Below are positions 3,042 to 62,004 of a stretch of DNA of 64,000 nucleotides, piece after piece. The notes beneath the pieces are model-generated. The model saw only the letters and a list, made by a program, of their open reading frames with translations, was not told the DNA's origin and searched no databases. The DNA comes from Fibrobacterota bacterium. GTDB lineage: Bacteria > Fibrobacterota > Fibrobacteria > UBA11236. Every line of letters begins with the position of its first letter. Position 1 is the first letter of the stretch. The position numbers and the translations under genes are program-made. Location of the stretch: assembly GCA_947466585.1 (NCBI GenBank), contig CANIEU010000005.1, positions 64,412 through 128,411 of the forward strand, given 5' to 3'.

Positions 3042-3824
3042 ATGAGAATGACGGCACCGAAAACCGTGTATTTTTCCTTCATGCAATCCCAACCCTCCCG
3101 CCCTCGTGCTGGGCTCAATCCTCTCTTCCTGCTGATCCTGCTGACCTTCAGCGTGGTTCTCGGCGTCGTTAACAACCTGGTCAACCCCGACGGTACCGAC
3201 TGGGTCGGTAGTCCGCGGGTACTGCCGAAACCGCTGGATTGGCCGAGCCTTTCTGCTTCTGAGGGCTTCTCGGCCGGAGCCAAGTTCGCCTGGAGCGGTT
3301 TGTTGCAACATGCGCTTTGGGTGGCAGGAGCTTTGCTGGTGCTCGCCTTGGGGGCGGCCATGCTGCGCCAGCGTGCATCAGGACCTGCTCGTTGGGTCAT
3401 GAGCTGGCTGCGCGTTTTCTTCGGCGTCCTATTTTTGGCCGCCGCTTTTCCGAAATTCACCGACCCCGAAGGCTTCGCCATGATGGTGGCGCAATATCAA
3501 ATGCTGCCGGCCTTCGCCGTGAACGCGTTTTCGGTCTGGTTGCCGGCTTTGGAAATTACCGCGGGTCTCTCCTTGCTGTTGCTCCCTTGGGAGCGTGAAT
3601 CCACCGCCTTGGTGGGGCTTTTGATGGTAATGTTCATTGTGGCTCTGGCCCAGGCTCTCGGTCGTGATTTGGGCATCGCCTGCGGGTGCTTTGACATCAA
3701 AGGCGCCACTGATGCCGGGGAGACCTGGTTCGCCCTCTTGCGCGACGTGGTGTTGCTGGTCCCCATTTTTTGGATGTGGTGCCGGGCCGACCGCCGTCCC
3801 TTATGGCGCTTGTGGCGGTTCTGA
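3042..3824 (+). CDS. MauE/DoxX-like integral membrane protein
   Basis: Multi-TM hydrophobic protein. FPKFTDPEGFAMMVAQYQMLP resembles the methylamine-utilisation MauE family. Start is ambiguous (3006, 3042 or 3078). Confidence 0.5.
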   Translation: MRMTAPKTVYFSFMQSQPSRPRAGLNPLFLLILLTFSVVLGVVNNLVNPDGTDWVGSPRVLPKPLDWPSLSASEGFSAGAKFAWSGLLQHALWVAGALLVLALGAAMLRQRASGPARWVMSWLRVFFGVLFLAAAFPKFTDPEGFAMMVAQYQMLPAFAVNAFSVWLPALEITAGLSLLLLPWERESTALVGLLMVMFIVALAQALGRDLGIACGCFDIKGATDAGETWFALLRDVVLLVPIFWMWCRADRRPLWRLWRF

Positions 3825-4255
3825 AGGCCCGTTTGACCAAGAAAGAACGGCTATTCGATCCGGTGCGGGGGAAGTCCGTGCGTGCGCTCCCTGAAGAGCG
3901 CGTGCGGCTGCAACTGGCGGACTGGCTGATCAAAACGGTGGGGGTTCCCCAACGTCTACTGTCTGTCGAATACTCTTTGTCGCAACTCGATCCCCGAAGC
4001 CGGAAGCGTGCCGATCTGGTGGTGTGGAGGCCCGCGCTCGCTCATGCCGGGGAAGGGGGAGTGCTTCCGTGGTTGCTGGCCGAGTGCAAAGCTCCCGGTG
4101 TCGCATTAACCCAAGGTGTTGCCGATCAGGTACGCGGCTACGCGGAAAAGATTCGGGCGGAATACGTGGTGCTCACCAACGGGGTGGAAACGCGGTATTT
4201 CCAGTCTCGGGAAGGACGGTTTTTTGAGATCGTGAACCTTCCAAGCTTTGGCTGA
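3803..4255 (+). CDS. stand-alone HsdR N-terminal-domain (HSDR_N-like) protein
   Basis: About 150 aa. Pattern E..VR..L...L....GVP......E..........RADLVVW.....PWLLAECK resembles the N-terminal domain of type I restriction R subunits. Overlaps the upstream gene by 22 nt. Confidence 0.5.
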   Translation: MALVAVLKARLTKKERLFDPVRGKSVRALPEERVRLQLADWLIKTVGVPQRLLSVEYSLSQLDPRSRKRADLVVWRPALAHAGEGGVLPWLLAECKAPGVALTQGVADQVRGYAEKIRAEYVVLTNGVETRYFQSREGRFFEIVNLPSFG

Positions 4256-4271
4256 AACTATTTGAAGAGAC

Positions 4272-4310
4272 AAAAAAAAGAGGAGGCTTTCGCCTCCTCT
4301 TTTTTTTTCA
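4272..4310. terminator. bidirectional intrinsic terminator
   Basis: A8-AGAGGAGGC-TTTC-GCCTCCTCT-T9: a perfect 9-bp GC-rich hairpin with an A-run on one side and a T-run on the other, sitting between convergent genes. Confidence 0.85.
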
Positions 4311-4324
4311 TCCGACAGTGCGGA

Positions 4325-6310
4325 TTATTTCTGCGGGAACGCTGCCACGCCTGTTTGGAAGGGCAGGTAGTTCGTGTTGAGGTCTTCGCCGTACTTGGCC
4401 CAGACCCGTTGAGCGTTGTCGGTTACCGTGACATATTCACAGTTTCCGCCGCGGAGTTGGACCTTGCTCATGTTGAAGGCGTTCGGCAAGGTGAAGTGCT
4501 CGTACACCGTCCAAGTGGTGAAGTCGATAACGCGTAAATAGGCCGATCCAGCGAGGTAGGCAAATTTGTCGCCGCAAATATCGATATCTTCGGGTGAGTT
4601 CATGGCATCCGGACCATACCACCAAGACCCCGGAAGTCCACCGACGTGAATCGCCGCGCGACCCGTCGAGGAGCCAGTGGGAATGGTGTAGATCGAGAAA
4701 ATCTGGTCACCCAATTTCACGTTCTGTGCAGGTCCCGCAGTTTCCGGCGAGTACAGGGTATACCACGCTCCACTGGTTCCTTGCTTGGCAAAGACAGTAC
4801 CGCCGTCGAGCACAATCAGAAGACCATTTCGAACGGCAAAGTCCGTCATGGAAGTCGCCGCCGGTGATACCCAATCTGTGGACCAAACACTCGGGTTGCT
4901 GGCAAGATACTTCGACCGAAGGCTCGGGTTGGTCCAATCCGGAACGCGCATCGTGAGGCGTTCGCCATCCTGACGGAAGTTGGAAATTCCCGCAATCCAT
5001 TGGTTCACCCAAGCGCCCGTAGGTGTTTTGGTGTAGAGGTTTCCATCGGTACTTTTGGCGGTCATATAACCACGGCTGTACTGGAATAACGTGACCGTAC
5101 CACTCGTTCCGGATCCAGGCCAGATCTGAACGTTCGATCCACCTGCTCCAAGGCGGCGATAGACATAGCCGTTGTTTTTGGAGAAGATGAGAGTGTCGCC
5201 TTCGGTAAAGAATTGATTCACATCCGTTGCGATCGTGTTGTAACCTTCATACCCAACGATCGACAGGTTGTTGTTGGTCAGCTTGACCGTGAGACCATGT
5301 GTTGGGTACAGAGTGCTGAAAGCCTTGAGGTCACCCGCCGTCAGGTTCGGGGTCGAAGAAGTCGTCGTGCCGTAGGTGAGAATCGAACTTCCCGGAGTCC
5401 AAGCGTCGCCATCGTTCACCGGCGTTCCGGGAATGTTGATGAGGCTTCCCATGTTCCAATAAAGGCCTTCCATACCTGTAAAGCCAACGTTTGTGGCCAA
5501 GGCGAAAAGGCTCATGACGACGGTCGTTTTTTGGTTTTGCGGGATGTTGCTCTCGTAACCCGTGTTCACCCACAGCGAAATGCCATCGGGTTCGACCAGT
5601 TCGTCGGGCGTAAGAACGGCGGTGCTGGTGTTCGTACCGTCAGGACCGATGCCGTACGAGCCGCGGATGGAAACGTCGTGGTTCGTGGATGAAGAAGTTT
5701 CGACAAACGAAATGGCAGTGCCTTTGGCCTGTGCGTTCCAGTTGGCGATGGCGGCACGCGCGGCGGATTGCCAGTTCGGGCCAATGCGGCCGGCGCCGGT
5801 TGTGTAGATGTAAACCTTGATCTGGTATACTTCCGGCAGCGCTTTGACATCAAACAAGCCGCTCCAGTAATCCCAACGCGTGTGCGCTTTCTTGGCGCCG
5901 GTCAAAAGATCGACTCCGCCCTTGTCCAGCTCGTTTTTCTTCCAGCGTGCGCGCAATTCACGCACCGTCTTGGCGCGCAAGCTAATGCTGTTGCGACGGG
6001 TGCCCTTGGTCTTGTCATTTTCCGAAAGGGTCGGGGTCATCATGTACAAGGTGTCGACACCAGCGGAGTCGAGTGTCGACACTCCGGAGAGCGCTGCCGG
6101 GGAGGCGGGATCGACATAGGACACGTAAATCATTTCACGCGCGACCCCGAGGGTATCCACGAGAAAGGAAAGCAGCGGATCACCGGTACCTGCTGAAGTC
6201 TTAACCGCACCTGAACTTGTGGTCGGGGTCTCGTTGAGACAACCGGTCAATAGGAGGGTAACGAACGTAAACGCCGCTGCAAAGATGCGGTAAAATTTTT
6301 GAGACGTCAT
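4325..6310 (-). CDS. large Thr/Ser/Gly/Asn-rich lipoprotein of unknown function
   Basis: 661 aa. Signal peptide plus lipobox (LLLTGC). No recognisable catalytic motif. GC content is visibly lower than the neighbouring genes. AT-rich 276-bp upstream region. Confidence 0.6.
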   Translation of the reverse strand: MTSQKFYRIFAAAFTFVTLLLTGCLNETPTTSSGAVKTSAGTGDPLLSFLVDTLGVAREMIYVSYVDPASPAALSGVSTLDSAGVDTLYMMTPTLSENDKTKGTRRNSISLRAKTVRELRARWKKNELDKGGVDLLTGAKKAHTRWDYWSGLFDVKALPEVYQIKVYIYTTGAGRIGPNWQSAARAAIANWNAQAKGTAISFVETSSSTNHDVSIRGSYGIGPDGTNTSTAVLTPDELVEPDGISLWVNTGYESNIPQNQKTTVVMSLFALATNVGFTGMEGLYWNMGSLINIPGTPVNDGDAWTPGSSILTYGTTTSSTPNLTAGDLKAFSTLYPTHGLTVKLTNNNLSIVGYEGYNTIATDVNQFFTEGDTLIFSKNNGYVYRRLGAGGSNVQIWPGSGTSGTVTLFQYSRGYMTAKSTDGNLYTKTPTGAWVNQWIAGISNFRQDGERLTMRVPDWTNPSLRSKYLASNPSVWSTDWVSPAATSMTDFAVRNGLLIVLDGGTVFAKQGTSGAWYTLYSPETAGPAQNVKLGDQIFSIYTIPTGSSTGRAAIHVGGLPGSWWYGPDAMNSPEDIDICGDKFAYLAGSAYLRVIDFTTWTVYEHFTLPNAFNMSKVQLRGGNCEYVTVTDNAQRVWAKYGEDLNTNYLPFQTGVAAFPQK

Positions 6311-18789: not shown

Positions 18790-19745
18790 GCGCGTTTCCC
18801 GGAGTTCTGGTCGAGTTCCATTTTTTGTTGCAGTCGAATTCCTTCGTAGAAGTGCGCAGGATCGGGTTCTTTCCCGGTCCACAGCCGGAACGAGGCGATT
18901 CCCTGATGTACCAGCATCCCGAGCCCGCCGACGGTCGAACATCCCTTGGCCCGTGCAGCCTGAATCAAGGCTGTTTCCTCGGGATTGTACACGATGTCGT
19001 AGACGATTTGAGACGGCTTCAGGAGGTCGCCGGGCAGCGGACTCGCGCTCACGTTCGGATGCATGCCCACCGGTGTGGTGTTCACGATGACGTCAAAATC
19101 GCCGTGGGTATGTTGCGCCGTGGCATAGTCGTCCAGCGCAATGGCCCGGATGTCGAATTGGGGAGCGGCGGCTTTTACTTCGGCGATGAGGTCAGTGGAT
19201 TTTTCGGGAGCGCGCGCCACCAAGGTTGCGGTGCGAGCGTGCGTCAAGAGAGCCAAGGCGAAGGCGATGGTGCGGGCGGAACCGCCGTTGCCAAGAATGG
19301 CCACGGACTTGCCGTCAAAGCTATGACCGGCATCACGGAAGGCGTTGATGAAACCTTCGGGGTCGGTGGTGGTGCCGTGGAGTTTCCCATCGCGATGCAC
19401 GATGGTATTGACAGCGCCCATCACTCGCGAAATATTCGAGATGGTGTCGCACAGAGGCACCACCGATTGTTTGTGCGGCATGGTCACGTTGACGCCGAGA
19501 AATCCGACCGCCTTCAAAGCCTTCAGCAGGTTGGCGAGTCCAGAGGTCTCTACCGGAAAGGGGACGTATACCAGATCCAAGCCGAGTCCCTGGATTCCGC
19601 CGTTGTGCATGGCGGGCGAGTACGAGTGCGACAGAGGGTTGCCGAAAATGCCGAGCAACCGTGTCGATCCGCGAATCAGGCTTGAAGGCCCTGACTGCTC
19701 TAAAGGCAAAACGGGAAGGTCGGACTGTTGCGACGGTGTCGGCAT
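18786..19745 (-). CDS. aroE: shikimate dehydrogenase
   Basis: 319 aa with LLGIFGNPLSHSYSP and VTMPHK motifs. Has a ~30 aa N-terminal extension, so the true start may be downstream. Confidence 0.8.
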   Translation of the reverse strand: MPTPSQQSDLPVLPLEQSGPSSLIRGSTRLLGIFGNPLSHSYSPAMHNGGIQGLGLDLVYVPFPVETSGLANLLKALKAVGFLGVNVTMPHKQSVVPLCDTISNISRVMGAVNTIVHRDGKLHGTTTDPEGFINAFRDAGHSFDGKSVAILGNGGSARTIAFALALLTHARTATLVARAPEKSTDLIAEVKAAAPQFDIRAIALDDYATAQHTHGDFDVIVNTTPVGMHPNVSASPLPGDLLKPSQIVYDIVYNPEETALIQAARAKGCSTVGGLGMLVHQGIASFRLWTGKEPDPAHFYEGIRLQQKMELDQNSGKRA

Positions 19746-24728: not shown

Positions 24729-24970
24729 GAAGCGAACCGAAATCTGGACATTGGAACCAGACAACAGGTTGAATCCGGATATGCGATGACCCGATCGTTG
24801 AAAAATGATAATGAACTAGTTGGGAATAACCCGTCAAAGTTTTTTAATTATCAGATAATGGACAAATTGAAACACGGAAATAAAGGTGTCAATGGGACGT
24901 CATCGCTTCAATAAAAATCTGCTAGCCGGCGCTCTTTAAAAGGGCAGGGTATTCACAAGCCATTGAGAAG

Positions 24971-25090
24971 GCTCGCAATGGCTCGCAATGGCTCGCAATG
25001 GCTCGCAATGGCTCGCAATGGCTCGCAATGGCTCGCGACGACTTGTAATTGATTGTAATGTCTTGTGAAGGTGGGGAATAGCTTGTGATG
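24971..25090. repeat. 10-bp minisatellite (GCTCGCAATG x6.6 plus ~5 decaying copies)
   Basis: Perfect head-to-tail copies span 24971-25036. They are followed by GCTCGCGACG, ACTTGTAATT, GATTGTAATG, TCTTGTGAAG, and a more diverged copy (GCTTGTGATG) after a short gap, to about 25090. Confidence 0.9.
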
Positions 25091-25108: not shown

Positions 25109-26893
25109 CTATTCCCACTCGATCGTGCCGGGTGGCTTGTGCGTCACATCGTATAACAACGCACCTGCACCGAGCGCTCTCAATTCCTTCCACAGCGCAT
25201 CGAGCAAGGCGAAAGGTAGTTCCGCAAAACGCGCCGTCATGGCCTCGCTCGAGGAAACGGGCCGCAACACGAAAACCGGTCCGCCGCCCTTGGTCAACGG
25301 CAGAAGTACGACCGGCATTTGCCAAACAGCCGCATACAGGTTCTCGCGTTTGAGCGCCGCCGTGCAAAGAGCGTCGGCCTCTCGTAACAGGTTCAGGCTG
25401 TCCGATTCGCAGTACAAGGGGATGGGCGTATAAGCTCCCTCCGCCGCGTGCGTTTCCAGCACGATGCGGTTCACCGCACGCACGCGGTTGAGCACCACGG
25501 TGGCGGTTTCGTCCGCAAGCTTCCATTCCCGGGTGCCCCGGATCAATCCCGGATGCGCGTAGGTGCGGGCATCGCCCTGCACGCCCACGCTCTTGATGGG
25601 TAGAATCTCTCCCGTCAGGCCCGCAGCCGCAAGGATCGGAGCGATCGCAGCGCTGTCTTTTTCCGAAGCTGGTTCGCCATCGCCGTTCGAACAAAGAAGG
25701 CGTACGCCAAGCCCCGGGCCAGGGAAGGGGTGGCGGTCGAGCAACGGATCGGGAATGCCGAGACGGCGACCCAGTTCGCGCACTTCATCCTTGTACAGTT
25801 CCGCAAGGGGCTCTACCACCATGCCTTGCGCCATGAGGTCCAGAATACCCTGCACACGATTGTGGTGGGTCTTGATCACCGCTGCGTGCGCCGTGCCGCC
25901 GCTCTCGATCGTGTCGGGATAAATGGTGCCCTGTGCGAGCATCCACTCGGTCGGGTCCAGATTCAGTTCCGCGATCGCCACATCCTTCACATGCAGGAAG
26001 GTTTCGCCGATCACCTTGCGCTTGGCTTCGGGTTCGGTCAGGCCGAGGAGATTGTCCAAAAAGCGATCGGTTGCATCCGCGATTTTCAGATTATCAAAAC
26101 CTTGCGCATGCATGAACGCGAGTACCTCGGCACTTTCGTCCTTGCGCATCAGACCGTTGTCGATGTGCAGGCCCAGCACGCGGTCGGGGCCGAGCGCGCG
26201 GTTGAGCAGTTCAAACGCCACGGTGGAATCGACTCCGCCGCTGACGAGGAGGAACACCTTCTTGCCTGCGCACTGTTTGCTGAGTTGTTCCTGAATCGTT
26301 TGCACGTAATGATCCATGTTCCAGTCGAACGCGCAGCCGCAGATCGACAGGAAGTTGCGCAGCATCGTTTGCCCTTCGAGGCTGTGCGTCACTTCGGGGT
26401 GGAACTGCATCCCGTAAAACTTGCGGGCGTCGTCACCCACCGCGGCCTGGGCGCAATCGGAGGTCGAACCGATGTTGCGGAAACCGGGAGCGGGGGAGGA
26501 GACCTCGTCGCCGTGGCTCATCCACACAATGCTCTCGGCGGAAATATCACGGAACAGAGCGTGACCAGCCTCGGCACGCAATGCGGCGGGGCCGAACTCG
26601 TGCACCAGACCGCGCTTCACTTCGCCGCCCAAGGTCTTCGCCATCAATTGATGCCCGTAACACAGGCCGAGTACCGGCAATCCGAGCGCGAAGATGCCCA
26701 GCTCGCATTGCGGGGCCCCGGGCTCATACACCGACGACGGACCCCCGGAAAGTATGATTCCCTTGTAACCGACCAATTCTTCAGGTTTTACATGAGCCGG
26801 AACCACTTCCGAGTAAACCCCGAGTTGCCGGATGCGGCGGGCGATGAGGTGGGTGTACTGGCCGCCGAAATCCACAACTGCGATCTTTTCCAT
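25109..26893 (-). CDS. guaA: GMP synthase (glutamine-hydrolysing)
   Basis: 594 aa. GATase domain (CYGHQ) plus ATP-PPase (LLVSGGVDSTV) plus dimerisation domain. Carries an insertion of ~70 aa relative to typical enzymes. Confidence 0.9.
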   Translation of the reverse strand: MEKIAVVDFGGQYTHLIARRIRQLGVYSEVVPAHVKPEELVGYKGIILSGGPSSVYEPGAPQCELGIFALGLPVLGLCYGHQLMAKTLGGEVKRGLVHEFGPAALRAEAGHALFRDISAESIVWMSHGDEVSSPAPGFRNIGSTSDCAQAAVGDDARKFYGMQFHPEVTHSLEGQTMLRNFLSICGCAFDWNMDHYVQTIQEQLSKQCAGKKVFLLVSGGVDSTVAFELLNRALGPDRVLGLHIDNGLMRKDESAEVLAFMHAQGFDNLKIADATDRFLDNLLGLTEPEAKRKVIGETFLHVKDVAIAELNLDPTEWMLAQGTIYPDTIESGGTAHAAVIKTHHNRVQGILDLMAQGMVVEPLAELYKDEVRELGRRLGIPDPLLDRHPFPGPGLGVRLLCSNGDGEPASEKDSAAIAPILAAAGLTGEILPIKSVGVQGDARTYAHPGLIRGTREWKLADETATVVLNRVRAVNRIVLETHAAEGAYTPIPLYCESDSLNLLREADALCTAALKRENLYAAVWQMPVVLLPLTKGGGPVFVLRPVSSSEAMTARFAELPFALLDALWKELRALGAGALLYDVTHKPPGTIEWE

Positions 26894-29064: not shown

Positions 29065-30735
29065 TTGACAAAAATGGCTTTGGTTTTGGTAAAAGTTGTA
29101 GGTAACGAAGGGGCTGCTGTGAAAGATTTTATGGTACACCAGGCCAGAACTCTGGCCGCTCTGACCGAAATCAGCAAGCTGTTCAGTTCCTCCTTGGACT
29201 ATACCGAGGTGGCGAAGCAGTGCCTGTACCTGCTTTCGGACATTCTGGACCTCGAGCGCGGCACCCTTTTGATGCCGACTCCCGACCGTAAATATCTCGC
29301 CATCCGCGCCAGCGTCGGGTTCACGCCCGAAGAAATTCGCGAGGCGGTTTATGAGATCGGTCGTGACTTCGTGGGCAAGGTATATAGTAGCGGCATGCCC
29401 ATGGCGCTGCCCGATGCTGACGACGTGGAAGGCGTTCCGATTCCCAAGGTCAACGCCGATGACTTCAACTTATACCGTATCGGCTTCATCGCCGTGCCGG
29501 TGACTCTCGACGGCCATCCGGTCGGCGTGCTCACCGCGCATCGCACGACCCATTCGACCACCATGGTGGACGAAGACATCAAGGTGATGAAGATCGTGGC
29601 CTCGCTCCTGTCGCAGACCTTGCGCATCGCGGAGATGATCCGCGAAGAGAACAGCCGTCTCGTGCAAGAGAACAAGGAGCTGCACCTCGAACTTGAGGAA
29701 CGCTTCAACCCCGAGAACATGATCGCCGATTCGTCGGCGATGGCGAAAACCTTGGAAATGGTGCGCCGCGTTGCGGGCACCGACGCGACGGTGCTGTTGC
29801 GCGGAGAGAGCGGAACGGGCAAGTCCCTGCTGGCGCGCAGCATCCACTTTTCGAGCCCGCGCAAGCGTGCTCCCTTCGTGATCGTGAACTGCGCCTCGTT
29901 ACCCGCCACCTTGATCGAGAGCGAACTTTTCGGCCACGAGAAGGGCGCCTTCACGGGTGCGTTCATCCAGCGTACGGGCCGCTTCGAAGCGGCCGACGGC
30001 GGCACACTCTTCCTCGATGAAATCGGTGAGCTGCCCATGGAGACGCAGGCCAAGCTGCTGCGCGTGATCCAGGACCGAACCTTCGAACGCGTGGGTTCTT
30101 CCAAGACCATGACGGTGAACGTGCGTTTGATCTGCGCGACCAACGCGAATCTGGAACAGCAAATCCGCGACAAAGAGTTCCGCGAAGATCTGTATTACCG
30201 CCTGATGGTGGTGCCGGTGCAGGTTCCGCCGCTGCGCACGCGTCGCGAAGACATCTTGCCGCTGTGCAACTACTTCCTTAAGAAGTTCACCACCAAGTAC
30301 GGCAAGCGCGTTTCGATTTCGCGCGAGGTGATGGAGTTTCTCGAAAGCTACACGTGGCCCGGCAACGTGCGCGAATTGGAGAACACCATCGAACGCACGG
30401 TGGTGCTGGCAGGCGGGGAGACCCTGACGCCGCGCGACATTCCCATTCTGGAGACCTTGGTGGCCGCACCGGCGGCGCCTTTTGTGAGCGCCATGCCGGA
30501 GGTTTCTGAACCGGCGCCCGCACCGGGGATCGTGACCTTCGGGCCGATGCAAGGCCGCGCGCGCGAGCGCCAGCCCTACGAGCGCGTACCACTGCGGGAG
30601 AAGGATATCCGTGAGGCGATGCACAATGCCGGAGGCATTCAGACGCACGCGGCACGGATGCTCGGCGTGTCGCTGCGCCAACTGCGCTACGCGCTCACGC
30701 GCTTCGAGATCAAGGCGACGGAGTTTAAGTATTAG
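29065..30735 (+). CDS. sigma-54-dependent transcriptional activator with N-terminal GAF domain (NifA/FhlA-like)
   Basis: GAF domain, AAA+ sigma-54 activation domain ([29 protein letters not shown]) and a C-terminal Fis-type HTH. Alternative start at 29131. Confidence 0.85.
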
Positions 30736-30860
30736 GGAAGGGGTGGGTAAGAGTGATTAGGGGATAGCAACACAAGACACGTTTGATTGCACCTCACTCG
30801 TCGCTATCCACTATCCACTATTCACTATTCACTATCCACTTTTTCCTACTTCCTACTTCT
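30734..30860. repeat. heptamer-array element: degenerate AGKGRWK units then (ATYCACT)x5 and (TACTTCY)x2
   Basis: ATCCACT at 30806-30812 and 30813-30819, ATTCACT at 30820-30826 and 30827-30833, ATCCACT at 30834-30840, then TTTTCC-TACTTCC-TACTTCT. Upstream, overlapping the TAG stop of the regulator, sits a degenerate inverted partner (AGGGAAG, AGTGATT, AGGGGAT, approximating AGTGGAT). Confidence 0.7.
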
Positions 30861-30863
30861 TCG

Positions 30864-32882
30864 TTACCACTCACCGCGGGGAGGTCTCTTCGCTCCCGGT
30901 TTCCCGCTTTTCAACTGCGCGTTCTTCGATCCCTTGCGAAAATCCTTGTCGTCGCCGAACTTTGCAGGACCGCGCTTTTCGCTGCTCGCATGGGATGTTT
31001 TCGAACTGCCGGGGCGGAAGGGTTTCTTCTTGCGAGCCATATCCGACCCTGTATCCCATTTCTCCCAGTCTTGCTTGGGGCGCGAAGATTTCGTGTGGGA
31101 ACCTTCCTTGGGCGGCGAAACTTCTTTCGGACGGAGCCCGGTTTTCTGCCGGTACCCACCGGTAGATCGCGCCGAGCGCTCTGTTGAACGCGCGGACCGC
31201 TCGGGTGCCCGGGCGCGGACCTCTTCCTTGGTATTCCTGGCTTCTAAAGCCTCTCGTGCTTTTTCCGAACGCGGCTTCACATGGGCTTCGTGACGCGCGG
31301 TGCGGGCGTTGATTTCCGCCTCGGCTTCGTCCACCGGATCGACCTTCGGCTTTTTGCGGTTGAGGATGCCGTACTTGTCGGGGAGCAATACCACGAGCAT
31401 TTCGATGTTGTTCGTGCCCGGGAACATGTCGAAGGGGACCGCCTTGGCCACCATGTAGCCCTGCTTGCGCCAGCGGGTGATTTCGGCGGGCATGGTGTTC
31501 ATGTCGCAGAACAGGTAGGCTACGCGGCGCGGCTTGCGCTCGGCCAGCAACGGGATCACGCCCGGCGCGGTGCCCTGGCGCGGCGGATCGAGCAGCAGCA
31601 CTTCGGGAGTGCCGTCGACGGGGGGCAGCAGTTTGGCCAAGGTCTTCGCGTCGATGCGCGAGGCGATGAAGCGCGTGTTGCGTAGCAGGGCCGGGCCCGC
31701 AGAGCCTGCCGCGCGTTGGGCGGCGTCGATGGAAACCGGCGAGCCTTCGATGCCGATGGCGCTGGCACATACTTCGGCGGCCGGCAAGGTGAATAACCCG
31801 CAGCCGCAATACAAATCGATGAGACGATCGGTTTTCTGGGGCTTGAGAGCGTTTTGCACTTCGGCCATCACGCGCGGCAAAATGGACGGGTTAACCTGGA
31901 AGAATCCCGTGGGATGGAGCAGATAGCGACGGTTGTCGATCTGCATGGGCAAAAACTCGGGGCCGAAAAGCTTCTTCACGCGGAAGGCGCCTTCCGAAAC
32001 GCGAGCCTCGAGGTAGTAGTCCGAACGCGTCTTGTCGTAGAAGATGTGTGCCGCCACGACCTTGCCGCCCTGCATCTTGCTCAGGTGCTCCGCCAGCAAT
32101 CCGGCCTTGCGCACCACATCGGCGTTGAGACGGAACACGTTGAAAATCACCATGAGGTTGGGATAACCGCGCACGATCAGGAAGTTGAGCGCATTGGCCA
32201 GCGGGCGATAGGAGTCTTCGTTGAGCTTGGCTAGCGCAGTTTTGTAAACGGCGTCGTGCGAAGCGGGTTCGAGCAGATCGATGCCGCCCTTGGCCTCGCC
32301 GCCGAGGCGTTCGAGGAAGAAGTCCCACTTCCAGCCGCCGTTCTTGAACACGAGGCGGCGCTTGGTGGTGGAGCGGTAATGGCGCGGCTCGGGCGAACCG
32401 ACAACGCGGGTGGGCTTGTCGGGGAGCGCGTGCTGCGTCCACCATTTGCGGACGGCAAGCGTCTTCAGCTCGATTTCGGCGTCATAATCGAGCAGCGCGA
32501 GCGGCGCAGGTTCGGGGTCGAGTTTGTCGAAGAGTCCCGCTTCACCGGCGGTCTGACGGATAAGCGTCGAAAACGCGTCCTTGACCGGGACGGCCGCTTC
32601 CGCCGCATCGCGCAGCACGCCGCGCTTGTCGCGCGGGTCACGCGTGGGACGTGGGCCCTCCGCGCCTTGGGGTTGTCCGCGTCCGCTGCGGCCGGTAGGG
32701 GCGGGCAGTCCGCGCTTGTTCTTGCCTTCGTATTGCTTCCCGACCTTGCCCGGTGCGGCGCGGCGATCGCCGCGCGTGGCGTCCTTGTAGGCATCCTGTT
32801 TTTCTTCGCGTTCCACGGCGCGCGCGTCGCGGCGTTTCTGTTTGCTGACGCTGGTATCGGTCTTGAATTGAAAACGGGTCAT
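30864..32882 (-). CDS. class I SAM-dependent RNA (uracil-5) methyltransferase, RlmD/TrmA-like, with long basic terminal extensions
   Basis: 672 aa. MTase motifs LIDLYCGCGLFTL and LLLDPPRQG. A ~130 aa Lys/Arg-rich N-terminal tail and a ~180 aa Lys/Arg/Glu-rich C-terminal tail. No Cys cluster is evident. Confidence 0.6.
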   Translation of the reverse strand: MTRFQFKTDTSVSKQKRRDARAVEREEKQDAYKDATRGDRRAAPGKVGKQYEGKNKRGLPAPTGRSGRGQPQGAEGPRPTRDPRDKRGVLRDAAEAAVPVKDAFSTLIRQTAGEAGLFDKLDPEPAPLALLDYDAEIELKTLAVRKWWTQHALPDKPTRVVGSPEPRHYRSTTKRRLVFKNGGWKWDFFLERLGGEAKGGIDLLEPASHDAVYKTALAKLNEDSYRPLANALNFLIVRGYPNLMVIFNVFRLNADVVRKAGLLAEHLSKMQGGKVVAAHIFYDKTRSDYYLEARVSEGAFRVKKLFGPEFLPMQIDNRRYLLHPTGFFQVNPSILPRVMAEVQNALKPQKTDRLIDLYCGCGLFTLPAAEVCASAIGIEGSPVSIDAAQRAAGSAGPALLRNTRFIASRIDAKTLAKLLPPVDGTPEVLLLDPPRQGTAPGVIPLLAERKPRRVAYLFCDMNTMPAEITRWRKQGYMVAKAVPFDMFPGTNNIEMLVVLLPDKYGILNRKKPKVDPVDEAEAEINARTARHEAHVKPRSEKAREALEARNTKEEVRARAPERSARSTERSARSTGGYRQKTGLRPKEVSPPKEGSHTKSSRPKQDWEKWDTGSDMARKKKPFRPGSSKTSHASSEKRGPAKFGDDKDFRKGSKNAQLKSGKPGAKRPPRGEW

Positions 32883-33307: not shown

Positions 33308-33448
33308 AGGTAGGAACAGTAGGTAGTCGGTAGACGGTAGTAGGTAGAGAACGCGAGGATGGCGGGTTTCCAAGACTGCCGAATTCCCCAAATCCATACC
33401 GAATGAAGCCCTCTACCGTCTACCGACTACCTACCACCGTCTACTATA
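33308..33448. repeat. heptamer-array inverted repeat (GTAGGTA-GTCGGTA-GACGGTA ... TACCGTC-TACCGAC-TACCTAC)
   Basis: The 21-mer GTAGGTAGTCGGTAGACGGTA (33319-33339) has its exact reverse complement at 33414-33434. The 74-nt spacer lies in the divergent cbiX/gcvT promoter region. Additional degenerate 7-mers flank both arms. Confidence 0.9.
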
Positions 33449-38432: not shown

Positions 38433-38713
38433 AGCCGGGCTGTGACCGTCGCTCTAGAGTGTCGCCTTCCGTCGCGAGGCTACCAGCCTCGGTGGCTCGC
38501 GCCATCGGCGCTCACGCTATCAGATCGGTGCAGGCAACATTCGACCCTCCTCAGGCTCCTACTAGAGCTTGGTCTCGCTCCGGCTGTGCTTTAGCATTGA
38601 GTTCTTTATGTATGAACCAAAAAAAGGCGGCCCCGCAAGGAGTGGCCTTTTTCTTTGTTCATGAAATTCTCAATGCCGGAGCGACACCCTAGAGCGGCGG
38701 TCGCAGCCCGGCT
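38433..38713. repeat. 281-bp structured element bounded by 33-bp imperfect terminal inverted repeats (MITE-like or sRNA/terminator module)
   Basis: AGCCGGGCTGTGACCGTCGCTCTAGAGTGTCGC (38433-38465) pairs with its reverse complement at 38681-38713 (30 of 33 match). The interior holds a nested hairpin ATGAAC-A7GGC-GGCC..GGCC-T5-GTTCAT at about 38608-38665, plus several smaller GC hairpins. Confidence 0.6.
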
Positions 38714-39354
38714 TATTTCTTTTTAAACGCGTGCGCCACCATCCCCATATAGGGATACTGCGATTCGGAGGCGATGGAGGTCACGGCACCCCCGTTTTCG
38801 ATTTGACGGATCTGGCCGGCGCCCTGCGGGTATTCGATGCCGGTGTAGGTGGCGTAAATGATATGCGTCGCGCCGATCCACATGCCGCGTTCAATGGCCG
38901 CATAGGCGAGGTTCCGTTTCCGTTCCTCAAGTCTGATGGCCGAGTTGGAGGTTTCGTAGAAGCAGAAATAGGGGAGGGGCGTGGCGCCGAGCGTGAAAAG
39001 GCTGCCGTACATCAGCGTCATGATGGGCGGGCAATAAAAGCGGCGCCAGGTTTCGTTGAAATCCACGAATCCGAGCCGCCAGTTGTCGAAGTTGCGCCGC
39101 ACGTAGATCTTGCCGAGGTATTCGTATTTGGATTTGTCGTAGCGCACCACGCCATCGGTACCCAAGGTGAAATCGTCGGGTGCGTTTTCAACGAAGAGGT
39201 GCGGGGTGACGTCGGTCGGCGTGACTTCGCTGTGTTTGTAGAAATCGCCGGCGCGGTCTGCGCGAGCTTCGAACACGGTGCTTGCACATCCCCCTAAGAT
39301 CGAGGCGCCGAGCAGGCTTCCAACGATGGTACCAAGTACAACGAGTCGCTTCAT
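38713..39354 (-). CDS. hypothetical lipoprotein
   Basis: 213 aa. Signal peptide plus lipobox (SILGGCAS). Confidence 0.55.
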   Translation of the reverse strand: MKRLVVLGTIVGSLLGASILGGCASTVFEARADRAGDFYKHSEVTPTDVTPHLFVENAPDDFTLGTDGVVRYDKSKYEYLGKIYVRRNFDNWRLGFVDFNETWRRFYCPPIMTLMYGSLFTLGATPLPYFCFYETSNSAIRLEERKRNLAYAAIERGMWIGATHIIYATYTGIEYPQGAGQIRQIENGGAVTSIASESQYPYMGMVAHAFKKK

Positions 39355-39378
39355 GCTGAGGTCTCCGGGTCCGTGTGA

Positions 39379-39420
39379 ATTTCGGTGGAACTAGGTGAAT
39401 CCGGTCGAATTTCAGGTGCG
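39379..39420. promoter_or_regulatory. 10/11-bp periodic direct repeats (GTGAATTTCGG / GTGAATCCGG / TCGAATTTCAG) just upstream of the lipoprotein gene
   Basis: Three to four copies spaced one helical turn apart, 25-65 nt upstream of the minus-strand ATG at 39354. Confidence 0.4.
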
Positions 39421-39604
39421 GGTTTTGGGGCATATAATAGCTTCACGGGCGAATTCCCCAAAAAGGGGGGGCGAAGTGTATCCCCTCGATCCGGCTGTTT
39501 CCGTATCCCGGGGGCTCACGGGGTGTTACCTTCGACCTTCTACCGCTGCGTAGCCTTTCCGGCAACCCAGCAATCTCAGAAATCCTAGGAATCCCAGAAA
39601 TCTT

Positions 39605-40015
39605 ATGGCCCGTTCATCTTCAAGCAGCGACGAACCCACCTACGAGGGGCTCCGCAAGGAGTGTACGGCGGCGAGCGAGTACACCACCAAGCTGGATCTG
39701 ACGTTCGGGACGGTGGGGTGTCGCTTCAATCTGCGCCGCAAGTCGGCGCGCATCGACATCAACCTCGAACCGACCCTCTACAACATCATCCCCGATCGTT
39801 GGCGCGAAATCGCGAAGCAGCACGATGAATACGTGAAGGTGAGCTTCGCCCGGGTGGACTGGAAAGACATGACCGCCCAGATCCGCACCGACGGCCTCTG
39901 CATCGATGTGCTCCGCGAAGACGTGGAGGAGTGGTTTCAGATGCTTTACGCGCGGCTGAACGCGCAAGAGGGCATGACCGGCATCAGCCCGAATCAGCGC
40001 AAACGCGGGTGGTAG
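39605..40015 (+). CDS. hypothetical protein
   Basis: 136 aa with no recognised motif. Ends 5 nt before the yaiI-like gene, so the two are probably co-transcribed. Confidence 0.45.
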   Translation: MARSSSSSDEPTYEGLRKECTAASEYTTKLDLTFGTVGCRFNLRRKSARIDINLEPTLYNIIPDRWREIAKQHDEYVKVSFARVDWKDMTAQIRTDGLCIDVLREDVEEWFQMLYARLNAQEGMTGISPNQRKRGW

Positions 40016-51029: not shown

Positions 51030-51047
51030 CTTTACCCGTACTCCTAG

Positions 51048-51104
51048 TCGTACTTCGTACTCGTAATCGATCTTCGTTTCGTAAAAACCGAGTACGAGTA
51101 CGAT
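51048..51104. repeat. heptamer-array hairpin (TCGTACT)x2 ... (AGTACGA)x2 between fabD and fabG
   Basis: TCGTACTTCGTACTCG (51048-51063) pairs with CGAGTACGAGTACGA (51089-51103), giving a 15-bp stem with a one-nt bulge and a 25-nt loop. Confidence 0.85.
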
Positions 51105-51861: not shown

Positions 51862-51871
51862 GGGGGCGCCT

Positions 51872-52001
51872 ACAGCGGACAGCGGACAGCGGACAGCTTA
51901 CAGCCAACTCCCGGACAAAACCTGCTTCAAGGCAGGCTTCCGGGGGAAAGTTTTTGTTGTTCACTGTTCACTGTACGCTTTACGCTGTAAGCTCATCGCT
52001 C
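51872..52001. repeat. heptamer-array element (KACAGCS)x5 ... terminator-like hairpin ... (CRCTKTW)x6 in the fabG-acpP spacer
   Basis: TACAGCG-GACAGCG-GACAGCG-GACAGCT-TACAGCC spans 51872-51906. A spacer containing CCCGGA..TCCGGG / CCTGCTTCAAGGCAGG hairpins is followed by GTTTTTGTT. Degenerate inverse units (CACTGTT, CACTGTA, CGCTTTA, CGCTGTA...) span 51960-52001, ending 37 nt before the acpP ATG. Confidence 0.8.
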
Positions 52002-52037
52002 TTTGCTATACTTTTCCAACCTTTCAAGGAGAATCAA

Positions 52038-52274: not shown

Positions 52275-52298
52275 GGTTTTTCGCCTTCCTTCGGTTCA

Positions 52299-52345
52299 AT
52301 ACGGGCACTGCGCGCAAGCGGCGGTGCCCGTATTGCGTTGAAGGG
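52299..52345 (+). terminator. stem-loop downstream of acpP (putative terminator/attenuator)
   Basis: AATACGGGCAC-(15 nt)-GTGCCCGTATT: a perfect 11-bp stem followed by only a weak T-run (GGGTTTTC). Confidence 0.5.
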
Positions 52346-52376
52346 TTTTCACGATTCCTTCACGAAAATCTTTTCG

Positions 52377-53129
52377 ATGCTTTCCTTTCTGAAAAACCTT
52401 TTTCGCGCCGGTACTCCCGGCTGGAAGCGTCCCGCGCGCCTTGAAAAGGTCATGGATTACCGCTTCAGCGATCCGCGCCTGCTCAAGATGGCGCTGTCGC
52501 ACCGCTCCTGGGTGAACAACGTCACGCGCGGTTCCCGACCTCCTTCCAATGAACGACTGGAGTTTTTGGGCGACAGCGTGATGAACGCCATCATCACCGA
52601 TACGCTGTATCGACGCTTTCCCGATTGCGACGAGGGCGAACTTTCCAAAATGAAATCGCTCGTGGTCAGCGCCAAGGTGCTGATCCCCTGTGCGGCGCTG
52701 CTCGACTTGGGCGAATACATGCTGCTCAGCAAATCCGAAGAAAAGTCGGGCGGGCGCACGCGTCCCAGCATTCTCGCAGACGCTTACGAAGCCATGCTCG
52801 GTGCGGTTTATCTCGACGGCGGTTACGAAGCCGTGCGCACCTTGATGAAGCGCACGCTCATCCAGATCATGGACGAGATTTTGCTCGACGCCAGCTTGGC
52901 CAATTATAAAAGCCTGTTGCTCGAATTCACCCAGTCGCGCGGGCTCGGCACGCCGCATTACGACGTGATCCGCGCCAGCGGTCCCGAACACCGCAAAGCC
53001 TTCGTAGTCGCCGCGATTGTGCGCGGCGAAGAGTGGGGGCGCGGTGCCGGCGGCACCAAGAAAGAAGCGGAGCAGGCCTGCGCCCGCGCCGCCCTCGAAA
53101 ACCGCGGCGCCTTGTTGGAGTCGGGTTAG
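52377..53129 (+). CDS. rnc: ribonuclease III
   Basis: 250 aa counted from ATG 52377. RNase III signature ERLEFLGDSV, with a C-terminal dsRBD. Confidence 0.85.
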   Translation: MLSFLKNLFRAGTPGWKRPARLEKVMDYRFSDPRLLKMALSHRSWVNNVTRGSRPPSNERLEFLGDSVMNAIITDTLYRRFPDCDEGELSKMKSLVVSAKVLIPCAALLDLGEYMLLSKSEEKSGGRTRPSILADAYEAMLGAVYLDGGYEAVRTLMKRTLIQIMDEILLDASLANYKSLLLEFTQSRGLGTPHYDVIRASGPEHRKAFVVAAIVRGEEWGRGAGGTKKEAEQACARAALENRGALLESG

Positions 53130-56451: not shown

Positions 56452-56480
56452 TTATGGAAGCAGAAACCGGTGCAGCCCGA

Positions 56481-58131
<1,651 letters not shown>

Positions 58132-60951: not shown

Positions 60952-61114
60952 GAAATGAGAAATGAGAATTGAGAAATGAGAAATGAGAAATGAGAAATGA
61001 AGGTTTGGCATTCGGAGGGGCATTCGACCAAGCTTCAAAAATCAGGAAATAATGGGGAATCCGCTGGCGGTGTTCCTCTTTTTTTCTCATTTCTCATTTC
61101 TCAATTCTCATTTC
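60952..61114. repeat. heptamer-array inverted element: (GAAATGA)2-GAATTGA-(GAAATGA)4 ... (TCATTTC)2-TCAATTC-TCATTTC
   Basis: Left array 60952-61000, right array 61087-61114, 86-nt spacer. Even the variant unit (GAATTGA / TCAATTC) is mirrored. Starts 7 nt after the fabF stop. Confidence 0.9.
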
Positions 61115-62004
61115 GGTTTCTCGCCTACTCTCTGGTCTCCTTCACTTCCCTTTCGTTCGCCGCATCGAACACCGTCATCACGGTGCCGGGCGATCAGGGC
61201 AAACCGAAGGCGCTCGAAATCAGCCCGGCGCTGCGCGATTACTGCGGCCTGATCTACGCCTGCGGGCTCAAGGTGCGCGCGGGTACCTGCCCCGCACCCA
61301 AGGACCTCGGGCCGCCCGCGCCGTTTTCGCCGCAGGGCGAACGTTGCGTCGAAGCCCGCGAGCTGGAAACGCGCGGTTTGCGCGCGGATAACCCGGAGTA
61401 TGGATTCCGGCTGTTCCGGTTGTTGGGATTCGAATACCGTGTCGTTTATCACATTCCCGATACGGTGGAAATTTCACGCGCGCGTCTCGAGTATTTACTG
61501 AACGATATTCCGCTGTCGGCCAAACTGATCTCTCATTACCGGCAGACCCCCTACAAGGCCGAGTATGTGAACGCCGCGCACACCCAATTCAAAGGCGAGA
61601 AGGGGACACGCTTGCGCGGCGAGGCCCGTTTGATATCCGGATCCTACGCGGAACGTCGTCTCATTTATCTGGGAACCGGCGTGGCCGAAATCGCCTTCTG
61701 GACGCTGGTCGGCCCGGGCATGATGGATTTCAATTACCGCGAGCTTCCGGCGACAGGCAAAATTCCGGAGCGCATCGTGTACGATCTCAAGGTGGTGGTG
61801 TTTCCCGGAAACGGCATGATCAACTCCATCATGAATCTGGGACTGTTCCGCAACGTGGTCTCCGACAAGGTGCGCGGCGTACTGACCGACATCACCGAGA
61901 CTGCGAAATTGTTGAAGGCCGATCAGGGCAAACAGCTCTTGAAAAACATGGAATGGTCGGCAGACGAGCGGAAGAAAATCGAAACTTTGTTGAAGCTGGA
62001 GTGA
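60997..62004 (+). CDS. hypothetical protein (start uncertain)
   Basis: 335-aa six-frame ORF. Its first ~40 codons are translation of the heptamer arrays (FFSFLISQFSFRF), so the true start is probably downstream of ~61120. The remaining ~290 aa show good codon bias and end 2 nt before trmH. Confidence 0.45.
   Translation: MKVWHSEGHSTKLQKSGNNGESAGGVPLFFSFLISQFSFRFLAYSLVSFTSLSFAASNTVITVPGDQGKPKALEISPALRDYCGLIYACGLKVRAGTCPAPKDLGPPAPFSPQGERCVEARELETRGLRADNPEYGFRLFRLLGFEYRVVYHIPDTVEISRARLEYLLNDIPLSAKLISHYRQTPYKAEYVNAAHTQFKGEKGTRLRGEARLISGSYAERRLIYLGTGVAEIAFWTLVGPGMMDFNYRELPATGKIPERIVYDLKVVVFPGNGMINSIMNLGLFRNVVSDKVRGVLTDITETAKLLKADQGKQLLKNMEWSADERKKIETLLKLE

Follow-up and report, generated by a model that had tools for sequence, protein, structure and literature searches.

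Six elements built from inverted arrays of heptanucleotides were found in a stretch of 64,000 nucleotides (nt) from a Fibrobacterota bacterium (GenBank assembly GCA_947466585.1, contig CANIEU010000005.1, positions 64,412 to 128,411 of the forward strand), which is called the window throughout. In each element, tandem units of about 7 nt are followed, 20-82 nt further on, by reverse-complement units. Such paired arrays are dense in a group of related genomes, where the arms change at spacers that keep an element. With moderate confidence, we lean towards regarding the elements as self-renewing quasi-palindromes, in which slippage in 7-nt steps and hairpin-templated copying would act around small pre-existing hairpins.

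Architecture of the elements

Arrays were called by Tandem Repeats Finder and arm pairs by an inverted-repeat finder, together with a separate period scan. Window elements are denoted W1 to W6, and loci, contigs and assemblies used for comparison carry L numbers. The sequence-only reading of this stretch had proposed a recurrent layout of 7-mers, a loop and reverse-complement 7-mers, with variant units mirrored between the arms. Both proposals hold, and the repeat finders recover arrays at all six loci. Four of the loci are clean and two are degenerate: 30734-30860, whose left partner is only degenerate, and 51037-51103, which is irregular (period 6-7) and so not strictly heptameric.

Mirrored variants are found in two perfectly complementary arm pairs of the window. 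At W6, the 32-nt arms 60959-60990 and 61083-61114 are 100% complementary with the variant GAATTGA/TCAATTC inside them, and the mirrored change is a transversion (A to T opposite T to A, positions 60966/61101). At W2, the 22-nt arms 33319-33340 and 33413-33434 are likewise 100% complementary and include three different variant units. A mirrored variant, GGGCTTA/TAAGCCC, is also present in a perfectly complementary stretch at 19672-19736 of the related locus L166. The other arm pairs recovered by the inverted-repeat finder measure 26 nt at the 56480 locus (88%), 24 nt at 51881 (75%) and 20 nt at 51055 (85%).

Our period scan detected six period-7 arrays of at least three copies in the window; each of the other periods from 4 to 15 gave between none and two. 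Second-order Markov simulations of the window (n = 200) averaged 0.04 arrays, and not one of them contained a pair. A chance origin of the window arrays is excluded, and the mirrored variants fit hairpin-templated copying, which the sequence-only reading had put forward in place of chance. The units run head to tail in at least three copies, as in short tandemly repeated repetitive (STRR) sequences or long simple-sequence repeats.

The arms and associated features of the six elements are as follows, with copy numbers from Tandem Repeats Finder where so stated and z-scores from the predicted RNA folds.

30735..30767, W1 left arm: degenerate purine- and G-rich GGGAAGGGGTGGGTAAGAGTGATTAGGGGATAGC, paired in the RNA fold with 30804-30847 (z -3.7); the flanking genes are convergent, a sigma-54 activator gene ending at 30735 and a methyltransferase-like gene ending at 30864 (Pfam)
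30804..30859, W1 right arm: CTATCCA/CTATTCA x5.3 (30804-30840, called as CTATCCA), then TTCCTAC x2.4 (30843-30859), from Tandem Repeats Finder and our own scans
33318..33348, W2 left arm: GGTAGNN units GTAGGTA GTCGGTA GACGGTA GTAGGTA (Tandem Repeats Finder, GGTAGAC x3.9 at 33322-33348), fold z -6.8; located between the divergent CbiX-like gene (minus strand, start 33300) and gcvT (plus strand, start 33458) (Pfam)
33409..33444, W2 right arm: CTACCGT CTACCGA CTACCTA CCACCGT CTAC, with variants that mirror the left arm (Tandem Repeats Finder, TCTACCG x4.7 at 33412-33444)
51037..51069, W3 left arm: decayed GTACTCN-type units GTACTCC TAGTC GTACTTC GTACTC GTAATC of period 6-7 in the fabD-fabG spacer, fold z -3.8 (Tandem Repeats Finder, period-6/19 array at 51033-51103)
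51084..51103, W3 right arm: CGAGTA CGAGTA CGA, ending 23 nt ahead of the fabG start and leaving the ribosome-binding site uncovered
51871..51904, W4 left arm: (G/T)ACAGCG x4.7 in the fabG-acpP spacer, fold z -6.4 (Tandem Repeats Finder, ACAGCGG x3.7 at 51872-51897)
51905..51957, plus strand, W4 core: small GC hairpin CCCGGA..CCTGC..GCAGG..TCCGGG, then GTTTTTGTTG; terminator-like by eye, with no terminator called here by a simple terminator scan
51958..52007, W4 right arm: decayed GCTNNNN array …GCTTTAC GCTGTAA GCTCATC GCTCTTT (Tandem Repeats Finder, TGTTCAC x2.4), running into the conserved GCTATAC box of the acpP leader (aligned with L169)
56479..56506, W5 left arm: GAATGAG GAATGCA GAATGAT GAATGAA, 3' of an XPB-like helicase gene, with in-frame ATG at 56495 and 56498 (Tandem Repeats Finder, GAATGAA x4 at 56479-56506)
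56566..56595, plus strand, W5 right arm: TTCATCA x4.3 (Tandem Repeats Finder), reading LSSFIIHHSSF, fold z -4.5; inside the sole open in-frame path to the signal peptide of an M16 peptidase
60952..61000, W6 left arm: GAAATGA x7 (Tandem Repeats Finder) including one GAATTGA variant, starting 7 nt past the fabF stop codon; identical in assemblies L161, L175 and L176
60997..60999, plus strand, ATG in the last W6 left-arm unit: predicted in-frame start of the open reading frame (ORF) 60997-62004 (335 aa)
61001..61082, plus strand, W6 loop: 82 nt with two small internal helices; translated if ATG 60997 is used
61083..61114, plus strand, W6 right arm: TTTCTCA x4.6 (Tandem Repeats Finder) with the mirrored TCAATTC; predicted translation FSFLISQFSF, which belongs to the hydrophobic N-terminus

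Distribution in related genomes and controls

The closest records to the window are soil metagenome-assembled genomes labelled Fibrobacteria bacterium, namely L002 with 88% and L001 with 81% FabF identity, and further FabG homologues carry the labels Fibrobacteria or Fibrobacterota. A FabF scan of genomes returned only these two close relatives and a scan of metagenomes only one moderately close locus, L081 (69%). Nine related loci were obtained via FabG and ORF-60997 homologues and by exact-protein look-ups. The lineage census comprised the window and seven relatives (151.6 kb), with an inverted array within 160 nt counted as a partner, and the 157 remaining loci of both FabF scans (2.23 Mb, mostly Proteobacteria) were used as the control set.

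A total of 24 heptamer arrays were found in the lineage census and 22 of them have an inverted partner, which corresponds to 14.5 per 100 kb. The unrelated controls contain 20 heptamer arrays, seven of them paired, or 0.31 per 100 kb, and paired arrays are 47-fold denser in the lineage. The sequence-only reading had named equally common unpaired arrays as evidence against the element family, and these are not what the lineage contains. No paired array of period 5, 6 or 8-12 was found in the 151.6 kb of the lineage census. Unpaired arrays do exist, though they are rare, as seen from two microsatellites in the relatives: an unpaired GTGACCG x6.9 array at 17969-18016 of L174, and GCAAAT x4 followed by GCATCG x2 upstream of a gene at 4520-4560 of L172.

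The elements are unevenly distributed among the relatives. Six elements lie in the 20.7 kb of L166 (92% FabG identity), where loops are short and stems almost perfect, for example AGGACTT AGGGCTT AGGACTT … AAGTCCT AAGCCCT AAGTCCT. Relatives further removed lack elements or retain just a decayed one. No element was found in the 20.7 kb of L168 (81%); L174, whose ORF-60997 homologue is 66% identical, carries no more than a single unpaired array and a two-unit hairpin that has decayed; and in L001 the junction from fabF to the next gene is compact, with no element after fabF. The burst of elements is thus confined to a subclade, and this comparison of orthologous spacers, which the sequence-only reading had suggested, indicates that elements are gained and lost as whole units.

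The same layout was also seen in unrelated controls, which means that the architecture is not unique to the lineage, only greatly amplified there. Control examples are L045 2935-3060, L062 5764-5796 and 14079-14236, L107 6408-6484, L139 7650-7735 and L051 16346-16419, and the hosts of paired arrays include a Sulfuricella genome, two gammaproteobacterial or Pseudomonadota genomes and two metagenome contigs. Directly upstream of fabD in controls lie a paired array (L045) and an unpaired TAATTGG array (L062). The unit of the L045 array, CAACTGA, differs little from the TAACTGA repeat described in Beggiatoaceae. At 2177-2341 of L046 (Craterilacuibacter sinensis), GGGAATA x5.4 is followed 90 nt on by CCCGAGT x5.3. 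These two arrays are G-rich and convergent on opposite strands, are not mutually complementary, and resemble the G-quadruplex-type pairs of Xanthomonas, not a hairpin.

Turnover at orthologous spacers

The position of the elements is conserved across related genomes in the fabD-fabG, fabG-acpP and XPB-M16 spacers, with variable length and sequence. The XPB-M16 spacer carries GAATGAW units in the window, GCGAAAA/GAGAAAA in L002 and GTACTCA in L166. Elements occupy the fabD-fabG spacer of the window and of L167, L170, L171 and L172, no two with the same unit; where L167, L170 and L172 align best locally, the match lies in the loop core GCGATTCCGGA.CCTG..CTCCGG and not in the arms. In the fabG-acpP spacer, GCTNNNN-type right arms and complementary left arms are shared by the window and L169, its closest relative (95%); these arms flank the terminator-like core, and the right arms enter a conserved GCTATA(C/G)TTTTCC…AAGGAGA leader. 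The same spacer of L166 and L170 has GC-rich, T-run-containing sequence without heptamer arms. Given conserved cores and changing arms at fixed spacers, the arms look like additions around pre-existing small hairpins. Compared with the cores they change much faster, and they do so in concert, within arms as well as between them. A GGCGGGTTTCC-like motif was seen by eye in several loops, and the orthologous-spacer alignments show only local core conservation. No sequence common to the window loci was found.

It had been claimed that every locus uses a different 7-mer. This is right inside the window, but recurring unit families were found across the relatives. GTACTCR/GTAGTCG arms occupy four unrelated spacers of L166 (813, 5962, 11956 and 16576) and, in decayed form, window 51037; GAATTAA units occur twice in L170 (3190 and 9794); AATGATG-type units are present at window 56566 and in L171 and L172; and GAAATGM-type and GGTAGGN-type families recur as well. 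The loops between the arms of the four GTACTCR elements in L166 are unrelated in sequence and length, which argues against copy-and-paste of whole elements but is compatible with arm copying between loci or a bias towards certain units.

Gene context and independent assemblies

The flanking genes in the window are ordinary housekeeping genes (metF, aroB/K, aroE, hflX, guaA, pepA, gcvT, ftsK, ruvABC; Pfam). A cluster among them runs plsX-fabH-fabD-fabG-acpP-rnc-lplA, then a small unannotated ORF, then XPB-M16-M16-fabF. The RNase III gene rnc was located at 52338-53129, directly after acpP, and also in L166 (11179-11943), L168 (11212-11883) and L174 (1334-2086). The order of rnc, lipoate-protein ligase, small unannotated ORF, XPB/ERCC3-type helicase, two M16 peptidases and fabF is conserved in the clade and is indifferent to the presence or absence of heptamer hairpins.

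About 90% of the window is coding in a rough gene map, yet all six elements centre in spacers. The claim that they sit in short spacers between housekeeping genes therefore stands for their centres, but two of them, 56479-56595 and 60952-61114, reach predicted 5' coding ends. The flanking genes can be convergent (30734; L170 3190), divergent (33308; L166 813 and 5962; L170 5792) or co-directional. The hairpins end 13-31 nt ahead of the start codons of fabG, acpP and gcvT, and at fabG and acpP the hairpin end lies upstream of a recognisable ribosome-binding site. A search of the whole window against Rfam gave no match, and neither tRNA nor tmRNA was found in it.

Separate assemblies span the elements at 51037, 51871 and 60952 with 100% (L161, L176) or 99.99% (L173) identity to the window. 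L161 and L175 derive from ENA ERZ27263765, L173 from Logan ERR12084924 and L176 from ENA ERZ28593229. Short-read Logan contigs (L162-L165 and the ends of L173) start or stop inside arms, at both edges of the W5 right arm (56566 and 56595) and at 60988. Since Logan contigs end exactly inside arms, the elements fragment short-read assemblies, and contig ends in the clade are enriched for elements; breaks of this kind are as expected for real inverted repeats. They would also suit an assembly artefact of low-complexity reads, the caveat raised by the sequence-only reading, but L161/L175, L173 and L176 read through those elements that they cover, and the architecture recurs with different sequences in seven related genomes from other samples and assemblers, so that an artefact is practically out of the question. 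No length difference in repeat number was seen among L161, L173, L175, L176 and the window, all of them consensus assemblies of the same strain (at least 99.98% identity). Because the strain is the same and Logan contigs stop in the arrays, this comparison is uninformative on mutability.

Folding and strand symmetry

By RNA folding, each window element is predicted to form one long hairpin, with z between -3.7 and -8.5; W6 folds at -73.5 kcal/mol (z -8.5). The lowest z-score over all folded elements, relatives included, is -8.8. If one transcript strand were selected, the sense strand should fold better through G-U pairs. No such asymmetry was found: of 15 co-directional elements, 7 fold more stably on the sense strand, and the two strands differ by -0.7 kcal/mol on average, at the low power of n=15. 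The lack of sense bias, the convergent and divergent settings, the mirrored transversion and the fast concerted change of the arms together point to a strand-symmetric DNA-level process, which fits best. The purine-rich strand tends to point inwards, in about 14 of 21 elements by an informal count. A strand or replication bias behind the purine-rich 5' arm was considered and dropped, because a palindrome reads identically on both strands.

A consensus promoter and terminator scan called no terminator inside any element, and its one promoter-like site, in the 60952 loop, is no more than expected by chance. Ordinary intrinsic terminators were rejected on this result, the core at 51905-51957 being the only part that is terminator-like by eye.

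Overlap with secreted-protein coding ends

In all orthologues of the M16 peptidase, the mature protein starts at about (A)DIQ/DIH/EIK…LPNGL and a signal-peptide-like segment precedes it. The last canonical in-frame start before this segment in the window is 56555, from which the W5 right arm is read as LSSFIIHHSSF. L002 has in-frame starts only at 1121, 1142 and 1151, within the left arm or at its end, and its hydrophobic core SFAFLLSLFAFF is encoded by the right arm; in L166, a TTG directly after the right arm leads to a normal signal peptide. Left arms carry ATG codons in several frames.

For the conserved secreted protein 3' of fabF (335 aa), ATG 60997 is the sole canonical in-frame start upstream of the hydrophobic segment, and independent gene calls on the same contig also start there. 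With this ATG in use, the W6 loop and right arm would be translated. Among 59 homologues of ORF 60997, an F-x-F-x-[IVL]-S-type N-terminal pattern was found in 14 of the 29 closest (at least 55% identity), with N-termini such as FLISDFIFLI, FMFLISSF and SHFAFRISHFSIRAF, and a few more are similar by eye. Two other homologues read KYQVPSTRYE…WYLVLGTWYV. These predicted N-termini (among P0124-P0149) match what TTTCNCA-type or GTACTCG-type arrays encode, and in several homologues nothing but the array-like peptide is hydrophobic ahead of an AxA-like cleavage site. Signal peptides of the usual Ala/Leu-rich kind are seen in more distant homologues; one of the distant homologues, P0148, has an N-terminus that resembles a translated GTACTCG hairpin, as judged from the protein only. 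Because the start sites are predictions, translation of the arms is putative, and the recruitment of repeat arms as signal-peptide coding sequence is an apparent one.

Origin of the elements

As self-renewing quasi-palindromes, the elements would start from a small hairpin, often terminator-like or leader-like, that is already present in a spacer. The nascent strand would switch template within this hairpin and copy one flank, inverted, onto the opposite flank, with outward extension of the stem. Slipped-strand mispairing would lengthen the arms in 7-nt steps, and repeated rounds would homogenise units within and between arms, giving mirrored variants. The heptamer at a spacer could drift or be replaced, with architecture and position persisting. 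The elements would survive where sequence constraint is low, in spacers of any gene orientation and at the 5' ends of secreted-protein genes, where a pyrimidine-rich 3' arm would be tolerated, having no stop codons and encoding F/L/I/S-rich signal-peptide-like sequence. When transcribed, they would form stems of 20-35 bp, long enough for RNase III, cistron buffering or start-codon burial, and the stems probably modulate expression as a side effect or in a secondarily selected role. Slippage, template switching, transcription, RNase III action and arm translation are all steps that we infer from the sequences compared.

Several points weigh against this reading. Up to four same-strain assemblies per element show no copy-number difference, and the arrays are not hypermutable on that timescale. 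Heptamer families recur at unrelated loci (GTACTCR four times in L166, GAATTAA twice in L170), which is unexpected if units are purely local and hints at inter-locus copying or a sequence-specific factor. Persistence at the 5' end of ORF 60997, in homologues down to about 55% identity, and in the fabD-fabG spacer suggests selection, not neutrality. The model also leaves the 7-nt step unexplained. Moreover, copy-number change of a heptamer array in Haemophilus influenzae was tied to an RNA hairpin and RNase III, not to simple polymerase slippage (PMC12721329). The dependence of that repeat change on hairpin and RNase III suggests at the same time why arrays here are almost never unpaired.

A selected cis-regulatory RNA, with the hairpins serving as RNase III sites, cistron insulators or translation-occluding switches and heptamers as the easiest route to building a stem, seems rather unlikely to us. 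It would account for the positions kept in relatives (fabD-fabG in five of seven, XPB-M16 in three of three) and for the finding that at least 14 of 29 close homologues in the ORF-60997 family have a hairpin or array at their 5' end. The start at 60997 and a putative ribosome-binding region lie at the top of a 35-bp stem, rnc is embedded in the same gene cluster, and the hmw loci of H. influenzae offer a precedent that joins a heptamer array, a long hairpin and RNase III (PMC12721329). However, the sense strand has no excess stability or G-U usage, elements stand between convergent and divergent genes too, the hairpins at fabG, acpP and gcvT end ahead of the ribosome-binding site, and the operon works without elements in L168, L001 and L169, and in L166 at some spacers.

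The arms could instead have been spread as non-autonomous mobile elements, similar to repetitive extragenic palindromic (REP) sequences and the hairpins they form in inverted pairs (REPINs), by a transposase of the REP-associated tyrosine transposase (RAYT) or IS200-IS605 type encoded elsewhere. The elements are hairpin-forming and extragenic, near-identical arm families occur at unrelated loci (the four L166 and two L170 spacers listed above), and the GTACTCR family is found at another locus, window 51037. Many units contain GTAG or GTAC, which we take to be reminiscent of the REP 5' tetranucleotide. Against such spreading, loops within one arm family are unrelated, no target-site duplications were seen at the elements, each of the six window loci has its own unit, and orthologous spacers keep an element as the unit changes. 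The 40 larger window ORFs that were scanned against Pfam include no transposase, and none, of the Y1/RAYT type or any other, appears in the precomputed Pfam labels for 41127-64000 or in those of the relatives' gene tables; whole genomes lay outside this search. We judge this origin unlikely.

A more elaborate possibility, which we hold to be doubtful, is that the heptamer hairpins of the clade form a self-renewing layer at fixed positions, whose stems would punctuate operons as RNase III targets or gates of translation. At secreted-protein genes, the 5' arm would both provide and conceal the start codon, and the 3' arm, which lacks stop codons and is hydrophobic in all frames, would act as the signal peptide. 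If true, it would be an unrecognised route from microsatellite hairpins to coding sequence, coupled with RNA-level control. Such a layer might be driven by a lineage-specific factor preferring GTACTCG, GAAATGM and GGTAGGN.

Phase-variation switches, in which 7-nt changes of arrays inside or just ahead of secreted-protein genes shift the reading frame or leader structure and so turn expression on and off, have a precedent in the CTCTT repeats of Neisseria Opa and another in the hmw heptamers (PMC12721329). The unit has a length that is not divisible by three, the predicted signal-peptide coding regions of the M16 peptidase and ORF 60997 contain arrays, and left-arm ATG codons fall in several frames. 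This explanation is nevertheless very improbable: no copy-number variation was seen among separately sampled assemblies, most elements flank cytoplasmic housekeeping genes (fabG, acpP, gcvT) outside coding sequence, and the arrays, with 3-7 units, are short and broken up by variants.

Other repeats in the window

The spacer downstream of guaA (25109-26893, minus strand) holds, at 24953-25090, a tandem array of 10-nt units (GGCTCGCAAT x6.7) that gives way to some five degenerate ones (…CTTGTAAT, …CTTGTGAA). One inverted copy, CACAAGCCATT, stands ahead of this array at about 24955-24966, and the array is the sole non-heptamer one of the window with a possible inverted partner. Imperfect repeats with a period of 9-10 nt at 39366-39420 and 39565-39602 (GAATTTCGGTG / GAATCCGGTC … CCCAGAAATC / CCTAGGAATC) are loosely complementary and occupy either side of the 250-nt spacer that separates the divergent ORFs 38713-39354 (minus strand) and 39605-40015 (plus strand). 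Possibly they are an ancient, decayed counterpart of the heptamer hairpins with a different period. An inverted repeat of 16 nt at 4272-4307 (AAAAAAAAGAGGAGGC / GCCTCCTCTTTTTTTT) is perfect, has a loop of 4 nt and looks like a classic bidirectional intrinsic terminator between ORFs 3770-4255 (plus strand) and 4325-6310 (minus strand). A 24-nt imperfect inverted repeat with 79% complementarity and a 9-nt loop lies at 52288-52344 between acpP and rnc. It is not heptamer-periodic and is likely an ordinary stem-loop or attenuator.

Comparison with known systems

REP sequences, bacterial interspersed mosaic elements (BIMEs) and REPINs are extragenic, hairpin-forming and very numerous, occur between genes of one operon as two inverted units with a variable linker, and are thought to stabilise or punctuate mRNAs. 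Each REP family has one conserved imperfect palindrome of 20-40 nt and is tied to a RAYT transposase. The arms described here differ in being internally 7-nt periodic and in varying between loci, and no RAYT was present among the scanned ORFs and labels. The sequence-only reading had set the layout apart from REP/BIME, CRISPR arrays and transposable elements of the miniature inverted-repeat type (MITEs), and this separation is upheld. The window loci share no palindrome of the REP/BIME kind, and only L166 has a four-member arm family, with unrelated loops. A MITE is rejected on internal sequences that are unrelated between loci and on the lack of visible flanking direct duplications, and CRISPR on units that are 7 nt long, contiguous and arranged as two arrays in inverted orientation. 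The intrinsic-terminator and Rfam tests were negative too.

The layout is not unprecedented: it is approached by array pairs in Xanthomonas (PMC4692102), by a hairpin at the Haemophilus hmw loci (PMC12721329) and by the sporadic cases in Proteobacteria. The closest described layout is that of Xanthomonas campestris and X. axonopodis, with 70-75 convergent inverted GGGAATC array pairs per genome (Rehm et al. 2015, PMC4692102). Both systems have tandem 7-nt units that are mostly intergenic, with opposite-strand arrays able to form a stem-loop, positions conserved between relatives, varying length and sequence, and the purine-rich strand inwards. Xanthomonas has essentially one G-rich unit genome-wide, studied as a former of G-quadruplexes (PMC4692102), whereas at least six units occur here in 64 kb of a different phylum and most are not G-rich. 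Four G-tracts were found in the window elements, only in the left arm 30735-30767, and the other units are GAAATGA, GAATGAW, GGTAGNN, GACAGCG and GTACTCN. Pairing affects 22 of 24 arrays here and about three quarters of the sites in Xanthomonas (70-75 pairs, about 183-186 sites; PMC4692102).

In the 5' untranslated region of H. influenzae hmw1A and hmw2A, an ATCTTTC array forms one arm of a long hairpin that is cut by RNase III, and this processing raises expression of the downstream adhesin (PMC12721329). Elements here would likewise place a heptamer run as one arm of a predicted hairpin in a presumed leader of a secreted-protein gene, and the ATCTTTC unit resembles the TCATTTC and TTTCTCA units of the elements. 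In hmw, however, the opposite arm is a G-rich stretch and not a reverse-complement array, and the system is a single pair of phase-variable virulence loci with at least 11 repeats, for which variation and cleavage were shown experimentally (PMC12721329). Copy number here is, by contrast, invariant in a few assemblies, and RNase III cleavage is only proposed.

According to Mrazek (2007), as reported in PMC4679880 and PMC4692102, heptanucleotides are the commonest long simple-sequence repeats in many prokaryotes, with polymerase slippage as the proposed origin. Examples are the cyanobacterial STRR sequences, TAACTGA of Beggiatoaceae (PMC4679880) and elements of Geobacter metallireducens (PMC2700814). 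Like the present arrays, these are intergenic 7-nt tandems, enriched in a lineage, often directly upstream of start codons and rich in stop codons in the forward orientation. They were described as direct repeats with one or few motifs genome-wide, as against six units in 64 kb here. Among 170 sets of TAACTGA a single case is inverted (PMC4679880), and locus-specific reverse-complement arms are not a described feature.

Mutation by template switching at quasi-palindromes is established in Escherichia coli (PMC7202029). There, imperfect inverted repeats are perfected by copying within the hairpin, which would explain the mirrored variants found here. The E. coli mechanism was described at single reporter sites and not for a genomic element family (PMC7202029); we infer that template switching is combined here with 7-nt slippage to build repetitive stems.

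What stands out in this lineage is the density, the many different 7-mers, the near-obligatory pairing, the turnover at orthologous spacers and the apparent use of some arms as signal-peptide coding sequence, in a kind of repeat already known from a few bacteria. To our knowledge, neither the 7-nt step nor the function of prokaryotic heptanucleotide repeats has an accepted explanation. The elements break short-read assemblies and mislead gene-start prediction. The lineage offers a dense natural series, with about one element per 3-10 kb and many units, in which gain, loss and unit replacement can be traced at orthologous spacers of a conserved operon. REP-like punctuation of operons by the stems and the recruitment of arrays as signal-peptide coding sequence are testable in this series, as is the possibility, suggested by the RNase III work in Haemophilus, that hairpin pairing is intrinsic to the dynamics of heptamer repeats.

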